From Escherichia coli O157 typing phage 4, in sequence record KP869102: DNA of 64,000 nt. One strand, written 5' to 3'. Positions 52,794-64,000 of the stretch are shown in pieces. The notes below the pieces were generated by a model. The model made no database searches and was not told the origin of the DNA. It was given only the letters and a program-made list of their open reading frames with translations. Numbering within the stretch: position 1 is the first letter of the stretch; every line of letters starts with the position of its first letter. A program made the translations under genes and the position numbers.

Positions 52794-52893
52794 NNNNNNN
52801 NNNNNNNNNNNNNNNNNNNNNNNNNNNNNNNNNNNNNNNNNNNNNNNNNNNNNNNNNNNNNNNNNNNNNNNNNNNNNNNNNNNNNNNNNNNNN
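52794..52893. other. assembly gap (run of N)
   Basis: 100 consecutive N. Confidence 0.99.
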
Positions 52894-52944
52894 TTAGTGG
52901 CGGGAAGTTTTCCCGCCTGTGTTTTTAATTATACTTATTGAGAT

Positions 52945-53205
52945 TTACTTGTCAACACTATTTTTTAAATTATTGTGGCGCAAAATGTTTAAAATCTCTT
53001 CAACGTCATCAACACGGCGGCAATTTTTAAACGCTACCAATTGCCCCATGATTTTAATCACTGGGCGGCCTTGCCAGTGCCCCTGGAGAAAGCGCGCCTT
53101 GACTTTATCAGTGGAACTATCACGCCACCAAACGGCCTTGTTATTGCAGTAGTAAAAATTATTCAGGACAATATCAACTTTATCAAAATTTTTTAATTTA
53201 CGCAT
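52945..53205 (-). CDS. hypothetical protein
   Basis: 86-aa minus-strand ORF. Confidence 0.4.
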   Translation of the reverse strand: MRKLKNFDKVDIVLNNFYYCNNKAVWWRDSSTDKVKARFLQGHWQGRPVIKIMGQLVAFKNCRRVDDVEEILNILRHNNLKNSVDK

Positions 53206-53413
53206 AGTGTTTACTCCTTCCTTCTTGCTTTGATGTGGTTAGTATATCCGGACTATTCCAAGGTGTCAAGCTTTAAATAAAATCACTGTCAATGATATTT
53301 TTAACACCATAAAACGGCCCTGGGTGATGTTTTCAGGCTAAGAAAGGGGATTGCATAGGTAGGGGCTTTTGTGGCGTTTGTGGGGCCAACCAGGGGCGCT
53401 ATTCGTAGGATAG

Positions 53414-53442
53414 AAATAAAAAGCCCCGCACAATGGCGGGGC
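53414..53442 (-). terminator. rho-independent terminator
   Basis: On minus strand GCCCCGC-CATTGT-GCGGGGC followed by TTTTTATTT. Confidence 0.55.
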
Positions 53443-53531
53443 GTTGGTTGTTATTTGTCTTTATGGCGGTATCGTTCCGCTTGTCGTTCACGTTCCAAAA
53501 GTAGGCCCGGCAATTTACGATCATAATGATT

Positions 53532-53633
53532 CCNNNNNNNNNNNNNNNNNNNNNNNNNNNNNNNNNNNNNNNNNNNNNNNNNNNNNNNNNNNNNNNNNNN
53601 NNNNNNNNNNNNNNNNNNNNNNNNNNNNNNNNN
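53532..53633. other. assembly gap (run of N)
   Basis: About 100 consecutive N. Confidence 0.99.
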
Positions 53634-53949
53634 TGGCCTGAATCGCCCGGATACGGCGTTTTATAACCTCCTGATCCGTGCAATCGTATCCCCAAAAGTC
53701 TACAATTTTCGCGCCGCCAGCTTTTAAGCGGTATAATGTTTCTTGCATTTTGTAAGCTGGGATCGGTCGCGGTGTTACCTGGTCGCCTTTTTCATCCTTG
53801 TACTTGATTATGTAGTCCTCGTTGTCGTTGAATACCCAAAAAGGGTACTCTGTAAGGGCGTTGCTTTCTTTTTCGTTTTTAGATTGGATCTTGTTTACAA
53901 TTAAAGCCGTAGCAATAGCGCCAATAATAAAACTAGCCCCGCTGATCAT
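53634..53949 (-). CDS. hypothetical protein with N-terminal TM helix, partial (runs into gap)
   Basis: Minus ORF from ATG ~53949; 3-prime end lost in N run. Confidence 0.35.
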
Positions 53950-54024
53950 GTTACTTTCTCCTTTCATTGTGTTGATAAACTATCTTTATAGATGGCCCTG
54001 TTACCAGGACCACCGAAAAAATAA

Positions 54025-54270
54025 CTATTTCACAATGCCTACAAAACAGATCCCGCCTTCACCTATATAGGCAATATCGGTAATTTTATAATTTGTCAAG
54101 ATCCGCGTGTTCAGATCATTAATAAAATCGGTCATCGCGTTGGTGTAGTTGTCTTCCGTGTCTAAGGCATAATCCCAGGTGTAAACCTTTTTACGTCCGA
54201 AGCCTTTTACCATGATACGGGCGCTTTTGGTGTTGGTAGGGGCATAATATTTGGTGATTAGTGCTGCCAT
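54025..54270 (-). CDS. hypothetical protein
   Basis: 81 aa, AGGAG RBS. Confidence 0.4.
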   Translation of the reverse strand: MAALITKYYAPTNTKSARIMVKGFGRKKVYTWDYALDTEDNYTNAMTDFINDLNTRILTNYKITDIAYIGEGGICFVGIVK

Positions 54271-54359
54271 GGTTTTAACTCCTCTGAATTAGTTCAGTGT
54301 TAACAGTATAAAGTTTACTTTATTGATGGCCCTGAAGTCAAGGCCATCTAAAAATAAAC

Positions 54360-54701
54360 TTACTCGTTTTCTTCCAGCTCCGCAAGCTCTTCTTTTGCTT
54401 CTTCTAACTCTGTCTGTAGTTCCTGGTATTCTTCATCGTCCTCAATATCCAGGCTGTCGATGTAGTCGCTAAATCCGCAGCGGTAAGCGATAGGATCTAG
54501 CTCCTTGAGGATACGCGACGGAAGAAAAGAAATGTTTCCGATCATAATTTCGCCGTAGATCTCGTCTAACCATTCATCATAGTTTTCGTCGTACTTGTCC
54601 TCGTCGATTTCAAAGTTATCGATCTTGTTCTCAAGGTCTGCGATCTGTTTTTTCAGCGCGGCGATCTGCATAGCTTTTTCTGCGGCGGTCATAGTAGTCA
54701 T
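54360..54701 (-). CDS. hypothetical acidic coiled-coil protein
   Basis: 113 aa, AAGGAG RBS. Confidence 0.45.
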   Translation of the reverse strand: MTTMTAAEKAMQIAALKKQIADLENKIDNFEIDEDKYDENYDEWLDEIYGEIMIGNISFLPSRILKELDPIAYRCGFSDYIDSLDIEDDEEYQELQTELEEAKEELAELEENE

Positions 54702-54980
54702 GGTGTTTTCTCCTTTTGTGTGCTCTGGGAAGTTTTCCCGTTTACGTGTTTAAGTATAGCGATCTAAGTTAGTTTGTCAATTAAAAATTTAAGAAAAATT
54801 TTGCAAAACTGTTAGCGCTACTCATTAACATTTGCGCCAGGATGTAACCAATGATGCAAACGATAATAGTTACCTTTGTGTGCTGGCGTGTAGTACTCAT
54901 CTTTAAGCCCCCCTTTCCGCTCAACTGTGGTTAGTTTACTTTATTGATGGCCCTGGAGTCAAGGCCATCTAAAAATAAAC

Positions 54981-55376
54981 TCAGTACGTTTTCAGTACTT
55001 TCCCGTCCAACCTGTCTAACTGAATCTCAATAGCTGCAGAAAACCTATTGTAAACCACATCGCCCAAGGAGTCCAGCCAATCTATAACGTTATACACCTG
55101 CTCTTTATTCTTGCAAGTCCGGATCCGTTTCATTACGTAAGACGGATCAATATTAGTACTCCCGTTGTTGTGGTCATGCGCCTGGCCTGCTGCACTGGTT
55201 ATAGATTTTACAACCACCTGAAAGGGCTTTAAGGTGCCTTTTGCGTTCATCTCACGCGCTTTTGCGGCGCGGTTGTTATATGTTACACAACGGCGGCAAA
55301 TGTTGAATAAATGCATGTCAATAATTTTTTCATCGTTTGCCAGTTCGTTCATGATGCGGCGTACGTTCTTATTCAT
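54981..55376 (-). CDS. hypothetical protein
   Basis: 131 aa, AGAGGA RBS. Confidence 0.45.
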   Translation of the reverse strand: MNKNVRRIMNELANDEKIIDMHLFNICRRCVTYNNRAAKAREMNAKGTLKPFQVVVKSITSAAGQAHDHNNGSTNIDPSYVMKRIRTCKNKEQVYNVIDWLDSLGDVVYNRFSAAIEIQLDRLDGKVLKTY

Positions 55377-55460
55377 AGCTTTTCCTCTGTGTTGGCGGGA
55401 TGTTTCCCGCCTTTTGTGTCTAGTTTACTTGAATTTTGCAGCGTGTCAATAATTTTTTTT

Positions 55461-55859
55461 TTATTCGTGGGCACATGTTACAATGTGCTTTTTATAGCCC
55501 AGGTGGGCAGCAAGTGCCGCCAAAAACTCATCTTCATAGATCCAGCCGTTGGCAGTGATCCCCATAGCATTTAATGCGCTCTCAAGTGCTGCGTTAGCTT
55601 TATCATAACCGTGACCGCTCGCCTTGCCGCCAGTATAACCGTACTTATTGTTCTTGTTGTCGTGTATCCAAAAAACGCAGTAGTTAGTGTTACCGCTGGC
55701 GGCGGCATAGTACCGGATCTCCGCTACTTCGTGCAAATTATTATCATCGTCCAGGCCAACCAGATTATAAGCCTTGTAAAATCCACGATCACGGCGGCAG
55801 TTCTTGACATCAGAAAAAGAGAAGTCGGCATTGTCAAAATTAAAGGTTGTGGTTTTCAT
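55461..55859 (-). CDS. hypothetical protein
   Basis: 132-aa ORF. Confidence 0.45.
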   Translation of the reverse strand: MKTTTFNFDNADFSFSDVKNCRRDRGFYKAYNLVGLDDDNNLHEVAEIRYYAAASGNTNYCVFWIHDNKNNKYGYTGGKASGHGYDKANAALESALNAMGITANGWIYEDEFLAALAAHLGYKKHIVTCAHE

Positions 55860-55923
55860 GATTTTATCCTCTTAGTGTCTTTTGTGATTTCAGTATATTT
55901 TGTGTCGGGGCGTATGTCAATAC

Positions 55924-56121
55924 TTATTTTTTATTAAACCAGTGATTGATCTGACCTTTTGTCAGGGCGCAACGATTAAGCTGTTGCAGGGTATAGCTAT
56001 GACCGCGACGAAATTTATAAAGGCCTTGCCCGTTGTTGATGGTTACATCCACCAGGCAAACCACTTGATCGGTGACCACCTGGCGAGTGTTGCGACGTAC
56101 TTTGATTCCGTATGCGTTCAT
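55924..56121 (-). CDS. hypothetical basic protein
   Basis: 65-aa ORF. Confidence 0.35.
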   Translation of the reverse strand: MNAYGIKVRRNTRQVVTDQVVCLVDVTINNGQGLYKFRRGHSYTLQQLNRCALTKGQINHWFNKK

Positions 56122-56209
56122 GATTTTTTATCCTCTCTGTTAATTAGTGTGGTGTTGTTCACCTTGCGAGGATAAGAATAACAAGAACTGTCCGAGCTGT
56201 CAACCATTA

Positions 56210-56362
56210 GTTAAAATTATTTTTGCCCCTGCCAGGTTAACCATCATTTTTTCGTACTCTTCTTTATGTTCCAACGCTCCCGCCATAGCCTTTTCAACCA
56301 GGGCGATAGCCTCAGCGTCATTAATAGCTACATTTTCCAGGGGGATCATATTACCTTTCATT
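56210..56362 (-). CDS. small hypothetical protein (~50 aa)
   Basis: Minus ORF MKGNMIPLENVAINDAEAIALVEK... with AAGGGGAGG RBS; below ORF-track length cutoff. Confidence 0.3.
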
Positions 56363-56544
56363 TTTGTACCTCCCCTTCAATTGTTACCTATCCTATAGCA
56401 TAGGCCCACCAGGTTTACAAGCCTTCATTCTCTCCTGCCTGGTCAGTTAGGTCCTGCCAGGCTGGCCCCGCCAGGTTGCAGCGGTTAGCGCATCAGGTTA
56501 GAAAAATTTTTTGAAAAGTGTTGACAGCGGCCCCGCCAGGTGGC
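56231..56544. repeat. iteron-like array of CYGCCAGGT motifs (about 7 copies)
   Basis: cctgccaggtt, cccaccaggtt, cctgcctggtc, cctgccaggct, ccccgccaggtt, catcaggtt, ccccgccaggtg read directly. Confidence 0.55.
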
Positions 56545-56894
56545 ACAATATACCTATCGAAAGGACGGCAGGCACCGGTGACGGGGGAGGCAACCACCGG
56601 GGATGGACGCTGCATAAAATGAGAACGGTTATCATTATCATTTAAAAATTTATGCAAAAAATCCTTGCTTTCTTTGTCCTGTGTGATACTATAATAACAA
56701 GCCGGGGCAACAGGGGCCGGGAGACAATCACCGGGCCTGCCCGTTATTCTGCAAACGAGAATGATTATCATTCAAAATTCTAAATGAGAACTCCTCGCAT
56801 TTAATAAATTTAATTAGCATGCTAATTACCCTCCGTAACAATTTCCTATAAAACAGTATCCCATAAAATATTTCCATATAGAAATTTTAAAAAT

Positions 56895-57069
56895 CCATTT
56901 CTGAAAACGAAAAATCGATTTCGTCCCCAAAAATTTCAGGTCGAGATCCGGAACGATTTCCAGAAAATCCGATTTAGAAAACGAAAAACAGATCGAGTAC
57001 TGAGAAATTTATCGAGAAAAATTTTCAGAAAATTCAATCTTTGAAACGAAAAACAGATCGAGTACCTGG
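56895..57069. repeat. AT-rich direct repeats (unit ending GAAAACGAAAAACAGATCGAGTAC), two full copies and one partial
   Basis: Near-identical ~44-bp copies at ~56957-57000 and ~57023-57066, partial copy ~56895-56925. Confidence 0.6.
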
Positions 57070-57377
57070 AAAGCTGCACTGCAACTTCAAGATAGTGGTT
57101 AGATTATTACCATAAAAGGTCAAGGGTAAGTGGAGGAAGTTCTAGTAGAAGGATGTGAGCATGTGTGGGAAATCTATAATGGTGGCCTGGAATATGGTGC
57201 AAACGATAGGATGAGTTATTCAGCTTGTCGCGCCTACTCTGAAAAATCCATTTTAGTTTTCGATCCATTTTCTGATTTTCTAAGAATTTTAAAATATCCA
57301 GCCCGGTGAAATATCAAAAGGAGGAAATCCATTTTAGAAATCCCCCTTATACTTGATATGCCAGGAATTTTCAAGTA

Positions 57378-57707
57378 TCAGTTGTCTTTGTTTTTAGGTT
57401 TGTACATGCGCAGAGGTATGGTCTTTGTAACATTCCATTTCCTCAACCCTTCCCAGCTCCAGTTGTGGGCGTGGTATCCGGTTATGCATGCACTACTGGA
57501 GTGATCGTAAGCATAAGAGAACGCTAAGCGCACCAGGTGGGGCCAGTCCTTCCATGGTTGTGGACCGTAAGCTTTTCTCCAACACCGACACAAACTAAAT
57601 GTCTCAAGGATAGGAAGGATAACAAACCCATACACTGTCACCAAAATAGTCAGTGCAATGATTGTCAGGAACACATACCCTGCAGTTGAAATGATGATCT
57701 CTGTCAT
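57378..57707 (-). CDS. membrane protein
   Basis: N-terminal TM helices; 109 aa. Confidence 0.4.
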   Translation of the reverse strand: MTEIIISTAGYVFLTIIALTILVTVYGFVILPILETFSLCRCWRKAYGPQPWKDWPHLVRLAFSYAYDHSSSACITGYHAHNWSWEGLRKWNVTKTIPLRMYKPKNKDN

Positions 57708-57907
57708 TTGTCGTCCCCTTTCTTACGGATATAGATGTGAGAACCTGCCTGTATATAAATTTCTCGACCATCTTCTGCGAAGATGTGGAATACACGGTCA
57801 CCTTCGTACTCAATACGAGATATCTTCATAATGGTCTTTCCACCTGGGATACGGATCTCGTCCCCCACAGCGATGTTCCATGCAGATTTAAGCTTAAACA
57901 TCTGCAC
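57704..57907 (-). CDS. hypothetical protein
   Basis: 67 aa, overlapping stop/start. Confidence 0.4.
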   Translation of the reverse strand: MQMFKLKSAWNIAVGDEIRIPGGKTIMKISRIEYEGDRVFHIFAEDGREIYIQAGSHIYIRKKGDDK

Positions 57908-58139
57908 CCTCCTTTGGGAACTTGAACTCTGGCATAGCCATATACGCTACAACAGGGTTGTGATCAAAGTAGAACTGACCGTTAATTATCCCGGTTTTAC
58001 TCACATAGTTACCAGATCCTGCAAGAACAACCTCGCAAGCTCCGAAATCTACATTGCCATCCTCATCAGCCATGGCTACGATATACTTTCCTAGAGGCAT
58101 GTTTTTAACGCCGTCTACAAATGTCCACCCTTTGTTCAT
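57894..58139 (-). CDS. hypothetical protein
   Basis: 81 aa. Confidence 0.4.
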   Translation of the reverse strand: MNKGWTFVDGVKNMPLGKYIVAMADEDGNVDFGACEVVLAGSGNYVSKTGIINGQFYFDHNPVVAYMAMPEFKFPKEGADV

Positions 58140-58159
58140 ACTTTATCTCCTGCACTTTC

Positions 58160-58492
58160 TTAAGGTAACCAGTAAACAATCTCGCCTTTCAGCTTCATGT
58201 CGTTTCCAACATAAATTTCCCAGCCATCCATCTTAGCAACTGTAGGCCCAAAGTCATCCGCACCCCTTACCTCTTTCCAGGCTCCGTAGTCAGGTTGCCA
58301 GATATAGAATCCACCTTCTTTGTCCCATGCTCCGTACACTACGTTTAACAGGTTTCCCATTGCAACAATGGTGGGCCGTGGGAATAATACATCTACAGAT
58401 GCGCCACAATTTCGGGTATCTTTTAAGTTGCAATCCCAAAAGATGTCTGCCAGTGTGGCGGCGATAGCTTTACGTCTTTCCAATGTTACCAT
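58160..58492 (-). CDS. hypothetical protein
   Basis: 110 aa. Confidence 0.4.
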   Translation of the reverse strand: MVTLERRKAIAATLADIFWDCNLKDTRNCGASVDVLFPRPTIVAMGNLLNVVYGAWDKEGGFYIWQPDYGAWKEVRGADDFGPTVAKMDGWEIYVGNDMKLKGEIVYWLP

Positions 58493-58502
58493 GGCACGAT
58501 AC

Positions 58503-58694
58503 TCACTTGTTGTTAATAAGTTCTAAAACTTTCTGTCTTACTTTGTCAAGGTCTGTTGATTCAAAAACTGTGCGATATCCCCAACTTTGCCCATAGGAGT
58601 GACTGCAATCTCCGTAGCACCATTGCTCAATTTGATAGTATTCAAGGAAGGGGTGCTGTCTAACTATGATGCCATCCCGGTTAAAAATTACCAT
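58503..58694 (-). CDS. hypothetical protein
   Basis: 63 aa. Confidence 0.35.
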   Translation of the reverse strand: MVIFNRDGIIVRQHPFLEYYQIEQWCYGDCSHSYGQSWGYRTVFESTDLDKVRQKVLELINNK

Positions 58695-58757
58695 AATACG
58701 TCGCTCTCTGTTAGTCTGTGCGTATATTATACACTGTAGTTTTCAGATGTCAATCTT

Positions 58758-59009
58758 TTACAGGTTACTCCAGTATACTCGGCATTTACATTTCGGGCAA
58801 TGAGGCTCTTTTATGTAATAACCATCAGTCTTTGGAACACTTTTTGGTGCAGTTTTAAGATTGTACCGAGTAAAACACCGGAAGCAGGTTACCTCTCCAA
58901 CCTGTTGATCGTTTATCCACTCGCCAGAGTAAAGCTCTCTCTTGTTTCTCATAATTCTCTCCCAAATCCTCTGCAATCTTATACCAAAATCTCCAGCCAG
59001 AAAGCACAC
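58758..59009 (-). CDS. zinc-ribbon protein
   Basis: CFRCFTRYNL...HCPKCKC Cys pairs. Confidence 0.4.
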   Translation of the reverse strand: MCFLAGDFGIRLQRIWERIMRNKRELYSGEWINDQQVGEVTCFRCFTRYNLKTAPKSVPKTDGYYIKEPHCPKCKCRVYWSNL

Positions 59010-59202
59010 GGGAACACTTTGATGATTGAATCTTTACCTGGTTCAGCAGTTCTTTTTCCGTAGGGTAGGTAGAAATACCCTCCTGCAGATTCGAACACAG
59101 CCCCTTCGGTTGTATCTATCACAGCCAGAATTAAGATTTTAGTCTCCATAGTGCTCCCTCTCTCAATCGTTGTGGTGACTATACCATCTCAAAAACCCGC
59201 TG

Positions 59203-59760
59203 TCAACACTTTTTGTACTCCACCACGATAATATTCATATCAAAAGTGGCAAGGTTAATAACGTCCTCTACGTGCTCCCACTTCAAACCGCCTATGCCGC
59301 ACCCGATCTTAGGGATGTAGAATGGTAAAGTCGATCCACTGAATACCTCATTGACTAGCTCAAAGCCTTTCAGGATTGAGAAATATTCAGCATTAGGTCC
59401 TGGGTAGAACTGAGTATACAGATTGATTCCGTAGACAATACCTCTCGGAGATAAGTGCTCCCATCGGGAGAACGCACCCAGTTTACTTAGGCAACCGTGT
59501 CTGGTCTCTTTGTCAGCTGCCAATGCTTGAGGGAACTCACGGGCAATCTGTTTTGCTATCCCCTTGCCCATTGTGTGGAAGCAGTTACAACCGTGGATCA
59601 GGTGACCAGCACCGCTCTTAAAAAGGGAGATTAAATCTCCCTCTACAGTATCAATAATCACGGTATGCCAGCTCCTCTTCCGCAATTTCAAAAAACTCAT
59701 CCCAACCTTGTGGCATATTTGAGTTGCCGAAGTGGCTTTCATAGTAAAGGTTCTCACCAC
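59203..59760 (-). CDS. macro-domain protein (ADP-ribose binding/processing)
   Basis: HLIHGCNCFHTMGKGIAKQIAREFP resembles the macro-domain core; true start probably an internal ATG. Confidence 0.55.
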   Translation of the reverse strand: MVRTFTMKATSATQICHKVGMSFLKLRKRSWHTVIIDTVEGDLISLFKSGAGHLIHGCNCFHTMGKGIAKQIAREFPQALAADKETRHGCLSKLGAFSRWEHLSPRGIVYGINLYTQFYPGPNAEYFSILKGFELVNEVFSGSTLPFYIPKIGCGIGGLKWEHVEDVINLATFDMNIIVVEYKKC

Positions 59761-60076
59761 TTGGGAGATAGAAATCTGTTACCTCGTAGAATCCACAATC
59801 GTCGCACTCGCCTTCTTCAAACTTGGCCTCAACCTTAATACCGAGGAAGGTGAAAAGTTTATGAATATCTTCAGTTTCGAACTCCCAGTGAATGTTGTTT
59901 TCCGCATCGGTGTAGAACTGGATCAGCAGACCATTGTCCAGTTTACCAAAATACTCTGTGAAGTAACTTCCTTCCCAGAAATCTCTATGACAAATAATAT
60001 CCATGCGTTTGCCCATAATAATGGTGTGAGCGTTTTGGGCATCGTCGCGAATCAGTTTTGGCATTTCATAGATCAT
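59651..60076 (-). CDS. hypothetical acidic protein
   Basis: 141-aa ORF; 3-prime end overlaps macro-domain ORF. Confidence 0.4.
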   Translation of the reverse strand: MIYEMPKLIRDDAQNAHTIIMGKRMDIICHRDFWEGSYFTEYFGKLDNGLLIQFYTDAENNIHWEFETEDIHKLFTFLGIKVEAKFEEGECDDCGFYEVTDFYLPSGENLYYESHFGNSNMPQGWDEFFEIAEEELAYRDY

Positions 60077-60144
60077 CTTAGTTCTCCGGGTTCAACAGGT
60101 GGTGGTGCTACAGGAAGATCATAAAACATAGCTATCACAGTCTC

Positions 60145-60342
60145 TTACACAGGAATTGCTTCAAACAGGCCGTTATCTATACCGTCCTTCAGATAGAGAT
60201 TATATTCTATATCGGTATCTGTATAAAGGGCAGCATCCAGCATTCTATCTGTGAGTCCATCCATTGGGTGGAGAAACCACCACCCACGCCAGTCAAAGTA
60301 ACAGCCTGGTGCATCTTCTCTTACACGGATTCGATAAATCAT
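60145..60342 (-). CDS. hypothetical protein (gene A; second copy starts at 61334)
   Basis: 65 aa; identical N-terminus seen again at 61285-61334. Confidence 0.4.
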   Translation of the reverse strand: MIYRIRVREDAPGCYFDWRGWWFLHPMDGLTDRMLDAALYTDTDIEYNLYLKDGIDNGLFEAIPV

Positions 60343-60438
60343 GGGCAGTGGCCTCCTGTTAGTTATACATCCCAGTTTTCTTCGTTCATCGCGTCCTCCC
60401 GTTATATGAAGTTATAATTGCACACCTTTCAACCTGTG

Positions 60439-60855
60439 TCAACAGAAAACTTCAACAAATTCTTCCACAGTTTTAATGTCGTGGGAAAAAGGTTTACGGC
60501 TATAACGGGCAATAGCACTATCAACCACCGCCCGGTACTCCAAATCTTCAGAATATTTCATGAAGCATTGCAGCGTCTCTGGGCAGATAGCTAAATAGCT
60601 CCACCACCCTTCTTCAGATTGGTAGTCGAATCCCATACTCTCCAACCATGAAGCATATACTCCTGCACCCTCAAGCCAGTGAGTATTTTCATCCAGAAAC
60701 TTGTTAATAGACATGTGAGCTTCTAAGCATTTATCTAGCTCTTTTCCGTTAACCAGCCACGCACTGACCGTGGCGCATCCAAGGTCTACAGATTGAGTTG
60801 ACAGGTTGTATTGGTCATAGTTCTCAGGTTTAACAATGATATCTTCTAATGTCAT
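60439..60855 (-). CDS. hypothetical protein (gene B, copy 1)
   Basis: 138 aa; ~98 percent identical to 61431..61847. Confidence 0.45.
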   Translation of the reverse strand: MTLEDIIVKPENYDQYNLSTQSVDLGCATVSAWLVNGKELDKCLEAHMSINKFLDENTHWLEGAGVYASWLESMGFDYQSEEGWWSYLAICPETLQCFMKYSEDLEYRAVVDSAIARYSRKPFSHDIKTVEEFVEVFC

Positions 60856-60874
60856 TTTTCAGATCTCCTTATAC

Positions 60875-60903
60875 AAAAATGCCCCACCCTTTCGGGCAGG
60901 GCT
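60875..60903 (-). terminator. rho-independent terminator (second copy at ~61867-61895)
   Basis: On minus strand GCCCTGCCC-GAAA-GGGTGGGGC followed by ATTTTT. Confidence 0.65.
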
Positions 60904-60917
60904 ATGTTAACTAATTG

Positions 60918-61184
60918 TTAAAAAGGGATGTCATCATCAAAGGAGTACTGTGCTGGATTCTGATCCATTGGGTCATCTTCCTCATCATTTACAGGAGGAG
61001 CGTCTACAGTGTTTTGCTGTGGAGCTGCTTCCTGTTTGGTAGCCTGAGGTTCTTGATGGTCAGTTGACCCAGCACCGTTCTTGATCCAATCGTACAACGG
61101 CTCAGCCAGATTAGTCAAGACATCTTTTGCTTCTGCAGTAATTGCCGCTGCAAAATCATCAACTTTCGTTTTCTTGTCAATACG
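60918..61184 (-). CDS. SSB-like protein, C-terminal fragment ending DDDIPF (5-prime part lost in gap)
   Basis: Gly/Pro/Gln-rich linker then acidic tip ...PAQYSFDDDIPF-stop. Confidence 0.4.
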   Translation of the reverse strand, partial: RIDKKTKVDDFAAAITAEAKDVLTNLAEPLYDWIKNGAGSTDHQEPQATKQEAAPQQNTVDAPPVNDEEDDPMDQNPAQYSFDDDIPF

Positions 61185-61284
61185 NNNNNNNNNNNNNNNN
61201 NNNNNNNNNNNNNNNNNNNNNNNNNNNNNNNNNNNNNNNNNNNNNNNNNNNNNNNNNNNNNNNNNNNNNNNNNNNNNNNNNNNN
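61185..61284. other. assembly gap (run of N)
   Basis: 100 consecutive N. Confidence 0.99.
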
Positions 61285-61430
61285 TCAAAGTAACAGCCTG
61301 GTGCATCTTCTCTTACACGGATTCGATAAATCATGGGCAGTGGCCTCCTGTTAGTTATACATCCCAGTTTTCTTCGTTCATCGCGTCCTCCCGTTCTATG
61401 AAGTTATAATTGCACACCTTTCCACCTGTG

Positions 61431-61847
61431 TCAACAGAAAACTTCAACAAACTCTTCCACAGCTTTAATGTCGTGGGAAAAAGGTTTACGGCTATAACGG
61501 GCAATAGCACTATCAACCACCGCCCGGTACTCCAAATCTTCAGAATATTTCATGAAGCATTGCAGCGTCTCTGGGCAGATAGCTAAATAGCTCCACCACC
61601 CCTCTTCAGATTGGTAGTCGAATCCCATACTCTCCAACCATGAAGCATATACTCCTGCACCCTCTAGCCAGTGGGTATTTTCATCAAGAAATTTATTCAC
61701 CGACATGTGTGCTTCCAGGCACTCGTCAAGCTCTTTTCCGTTAACCAGCCATGCACTGACTGTGGCGCATCCGAGGTCTACAGATTGAGTTGACAGGTTG
61801 TATTGGTCATAGTTCTCAGGTTTAACAATGATATCTTCTAATGTCAT
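61431..61847 (-). CDS. hypothetical protein (gene B, copy 2)
   Basis: 138 aa; differs from copy 1 at a few residues. Confidence 0.45.
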   Translation of the reverse strand: MTLEDIIVKPENYDQYNLSTQSVDLGCATVSAWLVNGKELDECLEAHMSVNKFLDENTHWLEGAGVYASWLESMGFDYQSEEGWWSYLAICPETLQCFMKYSEDLEYRAVVDSAIARYSRKPFSHDIKAVEEFVEVFC

Positions 61848-61909
61848 TTTTCAGATCTCCTTATACAAAAATGCCCCACCCTTTCGGGCAGGGCTATGTC
61901 AGTTAGGTG

Positions 61910-62533
61910 CTAAAAGTATTCATAGAGGTATCCATCGGGAGCTGGAATTTTTTCATGAATGTAGTAATCAACACATATTCCGGTTTCTCTTCTACAAGAA
62001 TTGTGGGATACCCATTCTTTAAGAACGTTGCCATTCATGTCCAGCCTCCTTACATTTTTACACCGTCTACCGCTGGTGCTTCTATGCAACAGAATATCCT
62101 CCGTCTGCTTGTCTTTATTTTCTCCCCAGGTCGTTAAACGGATATTATCAAAAGAGTACCCTTTGAAATCATCTATCCTGTCACAAGAAGGCTTTTTCCT
62201 TTTGTCGTATCCGCTGGCTACCCACTGGTCATACAACTCTTTGTAACCGTTCAGGTATAGCCACTCCTTAAACTCTTTTTTGGTGTAAGTCGGAGGAGGG
62301 TGACCTCTTTGCTTGCTGTTGCACTTTTGAGCCTTGTACAACACGCGTATTACACCTTTTTCTGAAGAGTCGTGGGAAAACTGGTCAGCCTCCCTACTGG
62401 CCTTCTTACAACACTCTTTGCACTTATTAAGATGACCGTCAGACATCTTTGGGTGTTTGTAGAACTCGGAGAGGTTTTTCACCTCTCCGCACTTGATGCA
62501 TCTCTTACAATGCGTAGATTCTACTTTTGCCAT
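61910..62533 (-). CDS. putative HNH-type homing endonuclease
   Basis: N-terminal Cys cluster [13 protein letters not shown]...CKEC, SFDNIRL...GEN segment; present only in copy 2 of the duplicated locus. Confidence 0.5.
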
Positions 62534-63027
62534 ATTGCAGACCTACCGGAGCGAAAGGAATGTCATCACAGAAGTCATACTGTGCTGGATTCTGATCCAT
62601 CGGGTCATCTTCCTCATCATTTACAGGAGGAGCGTCTACAGTGTTTTGCTGTGGAGCTGTTTCCTGTTTGGCAGCCTGAGGTTCTTGATGGTCAGTTGAC
62701 CCAGCACCGTTCTTGATCCAATCGTACAACGGCTCAGCCAGATTAGTCAAGACATCTTTTGCTTCTGCAGTAATTGCCGCTGCAAAATCATCAACTTTCG
62801 TTTTCTTGTCAATACGGCGACAAGCGTTCAACACCGCATTACCGACACTGGCACCTACTTCATCTTCAGTTCGGTTGGTGGCCTGAGCATACTCTTTCTT
62901 AAGCTCAATGGTGACTACGTGCAGTGTTTTAGCCACGCCCAGTGGGTCGTCTACCTTAAACCCGCGATCCAGGATGATCTGCAACGCATTGATGCTATGC
63001 CCCGTTTCCACACCGATAGGGTCGTAA
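62505..63027 (-). CDS. SSB-like protein (copy 2), partial, with C-terminal extension past DDIPF
   Basis: Same linker and acidic tail as 60918 copy but frame continues ...[23 protein letters not shown]; N-terminus lost at gap. Confidence 0.4.
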
Positions 63028-63127
63028 NNNNNNNNNNNNNNNNNNNNNNNNNNNNNNNNNNNNNNNNNNNNNNNNNNNNNNNNNNNNNNNNNNNNNNNNN
63101 NNNNNNNNNNNNNNNNNNNNNNNNNNN
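63028..63127. other. assembly gap (run of N)
   Basis: 100 consecutive N. Confidence 0.99.
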
Positions 63128-63416
63128 TTACGACCCTATCGGTGTGGAAACGGGGCATAGCATCAATGCGTTGCAGATCATCCTGGATCGCGGGTTTAAG
63201 GTAGACGACCCACTGGGCGTGGCTAAAACACTGCACGTAGTCACCATTGAGCTTAAGAAAGAGTATGCTCAAGCCACCAACCGAACTGAAGATGAAGTAG
63301 GTGCCAGTGTCGGTAATGCGGTGTTGAACGCTTGTCGCCGTATTGACAAGAAAACGAAAGTTGATGATTTTGCAGCGGCAATTACTGCAGAAGCAAAAGA
63401 TGTCTTGACTAATCTG
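63128..63416. repeat. inverted duplicate of 62738..63027 (probable assembly artefact)
   Basis: Reverse complement of 63128-63416 matches 62738-63027 with one mismatch; arms flank an N gap. Confidence 0.7.
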
Positions 63417-63516
63417 NNNNNNNNNNNNNNNNNNNNNNNNNNNNNNNNNNNNNNNNNNNNNNNNNNNNNNNNNNNNNNNNNNNNNNNNNNNNNNNNNNNN
63501 NNNNNNNNNNNNNNNN
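63417..63516. other. assembly gap (run of N)
   Basis: 100 consecutive N. Confidence 0.99.
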
Positions 63517-63585
63517 GAAATGGGCAAAAAAGATGCAGAGGACAGCTCAATTCGGGAGTCATATCTACTACAAGGAGCGCAATAA

Positions 63586-64000
63586 ATGATTGTAAACAGT
63601 AATGAAACTAAAGCAGTACTAACCGGAAATATGGAGGTCACCAGGGGCTCAATTTCTCTGAACAAAGAGACTTTTGGGCTAATCATTAAAGGGATTTACG
63701 AAGATAAGGTGCTGGCAAGCTGCCGTGAACCAATCTTCAATGCTGTGGACTCCCATGTTGAGTCTGGACGGGGTGATGTACCGATCATCATTCACTCTCC
63801 TACAGACCTTGAACCATACTTCTTTGTGCAGGACGTTGGATTGGGCATGTCGGAAGAGATGGTCCGCAACACTTTCATGAACCTCGGGGAGTCAACCAAG
63901 CGCAACAGCAACGCTCTGGTAGGTAATAAAGGTGTAGGTTCAAAGGCCCCGTTCAGCATGGTGGACACTTTCGATGTGATCAGTGTGCACAACGGTGTTG
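63586..64000 (+). CDS. GHKL-type ATPase (Hsp90/MutL/GyrB-like ATP-binding fold), partial at window end
   Basis: AAGGAG RBS; N-box EPIFNAVDSH, G1 box QDVGLGM, G2 box GNKGVGSKAPF; no stop before window end. Confidence 0.5.
   Translation, partial: MIVNSNETKAVLTGNMEVTRGSISLNKETFGLIIKGIYEDKVLASCREPIFNAVDSHVESGRGDVPIIIHSPTDLEPYFFVQDVGLGMSEEMVRNTFMNLGESTKRNSNALVGNKGVGSKAPFSMVDTFDVISVHNGV

Follow-up and report, generated by a model that had tools for sequence, protein, structure and literature searches.

The near-perfect inverted duplication in the record of Escherichia coli O157 typing phage 4 (KP869102) is very probably an assembly artefact, in which a redundant allelic contig stemming from two genotypes was flipped beside its twin, and not a feature of the phage genome. 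The inverted duplication itself is not real biology; what underlies it, the presence or absence of an endonuclease gene, is a real polymorphism and one of a well-known kind. The main value of this result lies in quality control, in that the record is not to be read as containing a palindrome. The same redundancy reveals a sample heterogeneous for a mobile endonuclease gene, which is ordinary phage biology and useful to users of the stock or the data. Positions given below refer to the window, i.e., the whole 64,000-nt stretch of DNA that was analysed.

The inverted repeat is present in the record as deposited. Direct inspection of the sequence, a repeat finder and a base-by-base comparison agree that 63128-63416 is the reverse complement of 62739-63027 over 288 of 289 nt. 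The original prediction had started the left arm at 62738, which is one base too far left because that base would have to pair with an N at 63417, and it had otherwise placed this arm correctly. It was also right in counting a single mismatch between the arms (62883 C versus 63272 A) and in describing them as separated only by 100 N, the spacing being exactly 100 N from 63028 to 63127. A match of 288 in 289 bases is not attainable by chance, and the junction core of 24+24 nt was matched in none of 100 shuffles. IMG/VR, searched for an exact copy of the junction including its N spacer, gave no match. Another run of 100 N (63417-63516) follows directly after the right arm. Bounded in this way by 100 N on each side, the right arm is a separate contig and not part of a larger sequence. 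Besides the two arms and a redundancy between two neighbouring contigs that is described below, the repeat finder returned no other long repeats in the 64 kb.

A megablast search against phage records identified the window as an rV5-like phage (Vequintavirus), and the closest record, Escherichia phage JES2013 (NC_022323), is almost identical to it. Mapped on this reference, the window resolves into six contigs (A to F) joined by five gaps of exactly 100 N each (Table 1). Since these five identical spacers stand for very different lengths and relations, they are placeholders and not measured gaps. They give no information on size or adjacency: one of them hides 8.9 kb, and two join contigs that overlap. 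The stretch missing at the first spacer amounts to about 6% of the genome and holds many small hypothetical ORFs together with an unannotated stretch. The 143 nt behind the second spacer were checked in JES2013, where nothing unusual was found. Contig F, which follows the right arm in the record, maps about 18 kb from the arms and on the opposite strand, and is thus not adjacent to them in the genome. Complete relatives show no break at this point, and the partial genome of typing phage 14 (KP869112) matches contig F at 100% and runs on without interruption where the window has its gap. The contigs follow ascending reference coordinates, with E and F on the opposite strand. From these coordinates, it appears that they were placed against a reference without being re-oriented; contig F continues past the end of the window.

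Table 1. Contigs, spacers, repeat arms and genes of the window, with corresponding positions in JES2013.
Feature	Window position	Strand	JES2013 position	Remarks
Contig A	1-52793		50145-102937	100% identical
Spacer A/B	52794-52893		102938-111813	stands for 8,876 nt missing
Contig B	52894-53533		111814-112453	100% identical
Spacer B/C	53534-53633		112454-112596	stands for 143 nt missing
Contig C	53634-61184		112597-120786	without reference 119884-120523
Spacer C/D	61185-61284			between contigs overlapping by ~1.5 kb of reference
Contig D	61285-63027		119255-120997	5 SNPs: 61396, 61423, 61452, 61463, 62883
Spacer D/E	63028-63127			no missing sequence; D and E cover the same 289 reference bases
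Contig E	63128-63416		120997-120709, opposite strand	100% identical
Spacer E/F	63417-63516			jump to another genome region, other strand
Contig F, start	63517-64000	+	2052-1569, opposite strand	100% identical; 3' end of endolysin gene and 5' end of rIIA
Left arm	62739-63027	-		final 289 nt of contig D; phrog_4477 protein (JES2013 gp199 homologue), residues 251-346; C allele at 62883 (CAG, Gln)
Right arm	63128-63416	+		entire contig E, 289 nt; same gene segment in opposite orientation; allele A at 63272, codon CAA, Gln
phrog_4477 gene, 3' part, endonuclease-free allele	60918-61184	-		residues 321-408 and stop; ends ...SFDDDIPF*
phrog_4477 gene, 3' part, endonuclease-carrying allele	62505-63027	-		residues 251-423 and stop; cut by contig end; terminal 23 protein letters not shown
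Free-standing endonuclease gene (endonuclease VII / HNH-like)	61910-62533	-		207 aa; on contig D, absent from contig C
Terminator-like hairpin	61873-61894	-		downstream of cassette on contig D; identical copy at 60881-60902 on contig C, just past stop codon
Gap-crossing ORF	62505-63686	-		393 aa; passes through N-derived X run
Gap-crossing ORF	62919-63602	+		227 aa; passes through N-derived X run

The lengths and end points of the contigs follow a common arithmetic. The sole difference between contig E and contig D falls at the exact centre of E, giving 144+1+144 nt. Contig D likewise stops 144 nt past the SNP at 62883, which gives D and E the same terminal base on the reference. The end of contig C lies exactly 144 nt past its last difference from D (61040), and by this same arithmetic the last 78 nt of E form a perfect inverted match, 100% complementary, with the end of contig C at 61107-61184. 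De Bruijn graph assemblers write out the k-mers spanning a variant base as a branch of their own, 2k-1 or 2k+1 nt long. Contig E would be such a bubble branch, made up of the alternative allele of a single SNP and 144 nt in either direction, and its length would correspond to 2k-1 or 2k+1 with k of about 144-145, or to the equivalent for reads of about 145 nt. Two details fit this model less well. Neither 144, an even k, nor 145, an odd one, is usual in common assemblers, and the first variant of contig D lies 111 nt from its start where 144 nt would be expected. The latter departs from the simple bubble rule and could reflect a low-coverage tip.

Uncollapsed allelic contigs of this kind are familiar from de Bruijn graph assemblies of mixed populations as bubble branches or 'haplotigs'. 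As in those cases, a short contig here duplicates the end of a longer one, a single variant sits between equal 144-nt flanks in arbitrary orientation, and a larger indel bubble, formed by the endonuclease cassette, breaks the assembly alongside. The contigs of the window differ from typical haplotigs in the start of D, which is off the k-1 rule, and in having later been concatenated with 100-N spacers into one record, which is why the redundancy looks like a palindrome inside a genome.

The mismatch between the arms falls on a third codon position (CAG/CAA) and is synonymous. Contig E, with allele A, agrees in every base with JES2013 120709-120997 read in reverse complement. The arm on contig D, with allele C, matches the phages nimi, HdK5, CarlMeissner and "Campylobacter phage C5" at 100% and JES2013 at 99.7%. 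Judging by these records, the mismatch is a natural polymorphism with both alleles found in nature, and not an error. The other four SNPs of contig D are natural alleles as well, two of them common to nimi and three to JLBYU08.

A second redundancy like that of the arms is found at the previous gap, where 60293-61184 on contig C and 61285-62816 on contig D represent two alleles of one locus, the former without and the latter with a cassette of about 640 nt. This cassette sits between the phrog_4477 stop codon and the terminator hairpin. Its 207-aa ORF matches phrog_1035 ('endonuclease VII') with an E value of 4.4e-41 and HNH PHROGs more weakly, and it is annotated as endonuclease VII in JES2013. 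The same ORF was without a Pfam match at E<0.01, and in a PDB sequence search PacI, an HNH enzyme, was matched weakly (E 0.17). Of about 115 related records, 51 have the cassette, and both configurations are common natural alleles. In line with this, the cassette-free tract of contig C (60560-61184) is 99.7% identical, in one piece, to nimi, CarlMeissner, RudolfGeigy and BP9. Compared with JES2013, contig C carries 35 substitutions, all at reference 119572-120642 and no more than about 310 nt from the insertion point. Ahead of them, 6,976 nt hold no substitutions, only an indel in a T run.

Free-standing homing-type endonuclease genes with a flanking conversion tract are the usual picture among the seg and mob genes of T-even phages. 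The polymorphism of the window would fit this picture, both in the presence or absence of the gene and in the tract of SNPs beside it. The likeness to such genes, and to intronless homing, lies in an intergenic ORF of a putative nuclease family (phrog_1035), in its being carried by some close relatives and missing from others at one site, and in the clustering of the 35 SNPs around the insertion with none in the 7 kb before. The difference is that the enzyme of the window is putative, its family being assigned solely by PHROG profile.

The cassette also bears on the gene that it follows. In the endonuclease-carrying allele, the phrog_4477 reading frame has lost its stop codon and runs on for 15 residues past ...DDIPF (60918-60941 compared with 62505-62573, minus strand), and the endonuclease gene overlaps this extended 3' end by 29 nt. 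The SFDDDIPF end of the shorter protein has the same tip as E. coli SSB. In bacterial SSB, the tip must be a free C-terminus. Thus, the 15-residue extension brought by the cassette may alter the tail function of a putative SSB-like protein. The label 'putative single-stranded DNA-binding protein' derives from one depositor's annotation, in phage JLBYU08, together with the DDDIPF tail; for the phrog_4477 protein itself, a Pfam search gave no match and a PDB sequence search gave marginal matches only.

Taken together, these data are best accommodated by a short series of steps. The sequenced material would have held two nearly identical JES2013-like Vequintavirus genotypes that differed at one locus, one of them with the endonuclease cassette just behind the phrog_4477 gene and the other without it, with SNPs clustered in the flanks. 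Unable to merge the two, the assembler would have produced redundant contigs: C, a long contig ending in the cassette-free allele; D, with the cassette-carrying allele; and E, the bubble branch. The contigs would then have been strung together with fixed 100-N spacers, apparently in reference order and with their orientation left uncorrected. Placed beside the identical end of D and on the opposite strand, E would give rise to the apparent palindrome. One feature sits uneasily with the simplest form of this model. Contig C pairs reference-type flanks with a cassette-free core, and contig D pairs non-reference flanks with a cassette core, so that either the phasing of C and D would be partly wrong or neither genotype would equal the published JES2013. 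No public record matches the left flank of D at 100% identity. The best matches are Murica and JLBYU08, both cassette-free, at 99.4% and rV5_ev168, which carries the cassette, at 99.1%, and they do not decide the phasing.

How the two genotypes came to be together is a separate question. One possibility, which we put forward tentatively, is that the alleles represent homing-type conversion segregating in one almost clonal JES2013-like population, identical over at least 60 kb except for a tract of 1.1-1.5 kb, with a possible cost to the SSB-like tip. An alternative is that the same artefact arose from two sources, by cross-contamination, in a deliberate cocktail or through the pooling of contigs from two assemblies of related phages. 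Many near-identical rV5-like phages are handled together as typing sets and biocontrol cocktails, and the 99.7% identity of the cassette-free tract to independent isolates would suit such an origin. Against this, the 52.8 kb of contig A and the opening 7 kb of contig C match JES2013 at 100% bar one homopolymer indel, and there are no further redundant contigs, where a second, independent phage should differ at many more places. This argument loses some force if other bubbles were silently collapsed by the assembler. On balance, an origin from two sources appears rather unlikely.

The original prediction also read the inverted duplication as an assembly or scaffolding artefact, and in substance this reading stands; its suggestion of a chimeric read does not. 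Inverted junctions are typical products of amplification and library chimeras, and a chimeric or snap-back read (from multiple-displacement amplification or a library chimera) assembled as if genomic would account for arms that are almost identical, forming a near-perfect inverted duplication absent from the genome. Such a read should, however, leave a contiguous junction within one contig, whereas the arms of the window are separate contigs with N between and after them. Moreover, snap-back arms derived from one molecule should be identical, whereas here they differ by a natural synonymous SNP that is centred in a short contig. With the arms being separate contigs that carry different natural alleles, this explanation was rejected as highly improbable.

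It is scarcely credible that the inverted duplication is a genuine palindrome, present in some or all of the genomes (e.g., in rearranged or defective ones) with its arms rightly placed from read pairs. Its arms do lie adjacent and inverted in the scaffold, and their palindromic look recalls, superficially, the terminal inverted repeats and hairpin telomeres of phages, of which the N15-type linear plasmid prophages are an example. Unlike those, the repeat of the window lies inside a coding gene and away from the genome ends, and relatives do not share it. The arm sequence occurs at 117 places in 115 related phage records, which makes it essentially single-copy, and the segment is part of one uninterrupted, essential-looking gene (423 aa in JES2013, 408 aa in nimi). 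A real palindrome would cut this gene at residue 251, and its first 250 codons are absent from the window by protein alignment. In addition, the gaps are placeholders in size, the joins next to the arms can be shown not to be genomic, and a symmetry of 144+1+144 about a SNP is the mark of an assembler and not of biology. Finally, the genomes of rV5 are circularly permuted (PMC3606486), which leaves no reason to expect a terminal hairpin or an inverted terminal repeat in this genus. A palindrome or telomere was thus rejected both on this ground and on the near-single-copy status of the segment.

For annotation, an artefactual origin of the inverted repeat has direct consequences. The two ORFs that cross the gap, of 393 and 227 aa, were both predicted to be spurious, and as wholes they are and should not be annotated. 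The portion of the 393-aa ORF at 62505-63027, in contrast, is the true 3' end of the real 423-aa gene. Protein alignment finds three partial copies of the phrog_4477 gene in the window, one each on contigs C, D and E, the last in opposite orientation. Between 60.3 and 63.4 kb, these three copies and two of the upstream neighbour would lead to inflated gene counts and misled analyses of repeats or rearrangements. Within the duplicated stretch (60293-60907 versus 61285-61899), the 138-aa gene (phrog_8967) appears twice, at 60439-60855 and 61431-61847, as does the 5' part of the 65-aa gene (phrog_9903), because contigs C and D overlap. The two copies of the 138-aa gene differ at 3 residues, since both lie in the putative conversion tract.

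Several minor features of the window were noted along the way. The T run at 55453-55462 differs by one base from JES2013 (10 versus 9) at the 3' edge of the homologue of JES2013 ORF182. This indel is the only difference from JES2013 in about 7 kb and is typical of homopolymer discrepancies in sequencing or assembly. An A/T-rich stretch at 56872-57072 contains three tandem-like direct repeats of about 62 nt with 61-77% identity, and a 49-nt repeat containing a hairpin occurs in three copies, at 53978, 54312 and 54933. Both sets resemble regulatory or terminator elements that recur between the genes of the early region. Among the related records, sixteen are named 'Campylobacter phage' (MG0656xx) with Campylobacter jejuni given as host. 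They are unannotated and 94-100% identical to these E. coli Vequintaviruses, and their naming looks doubtful.
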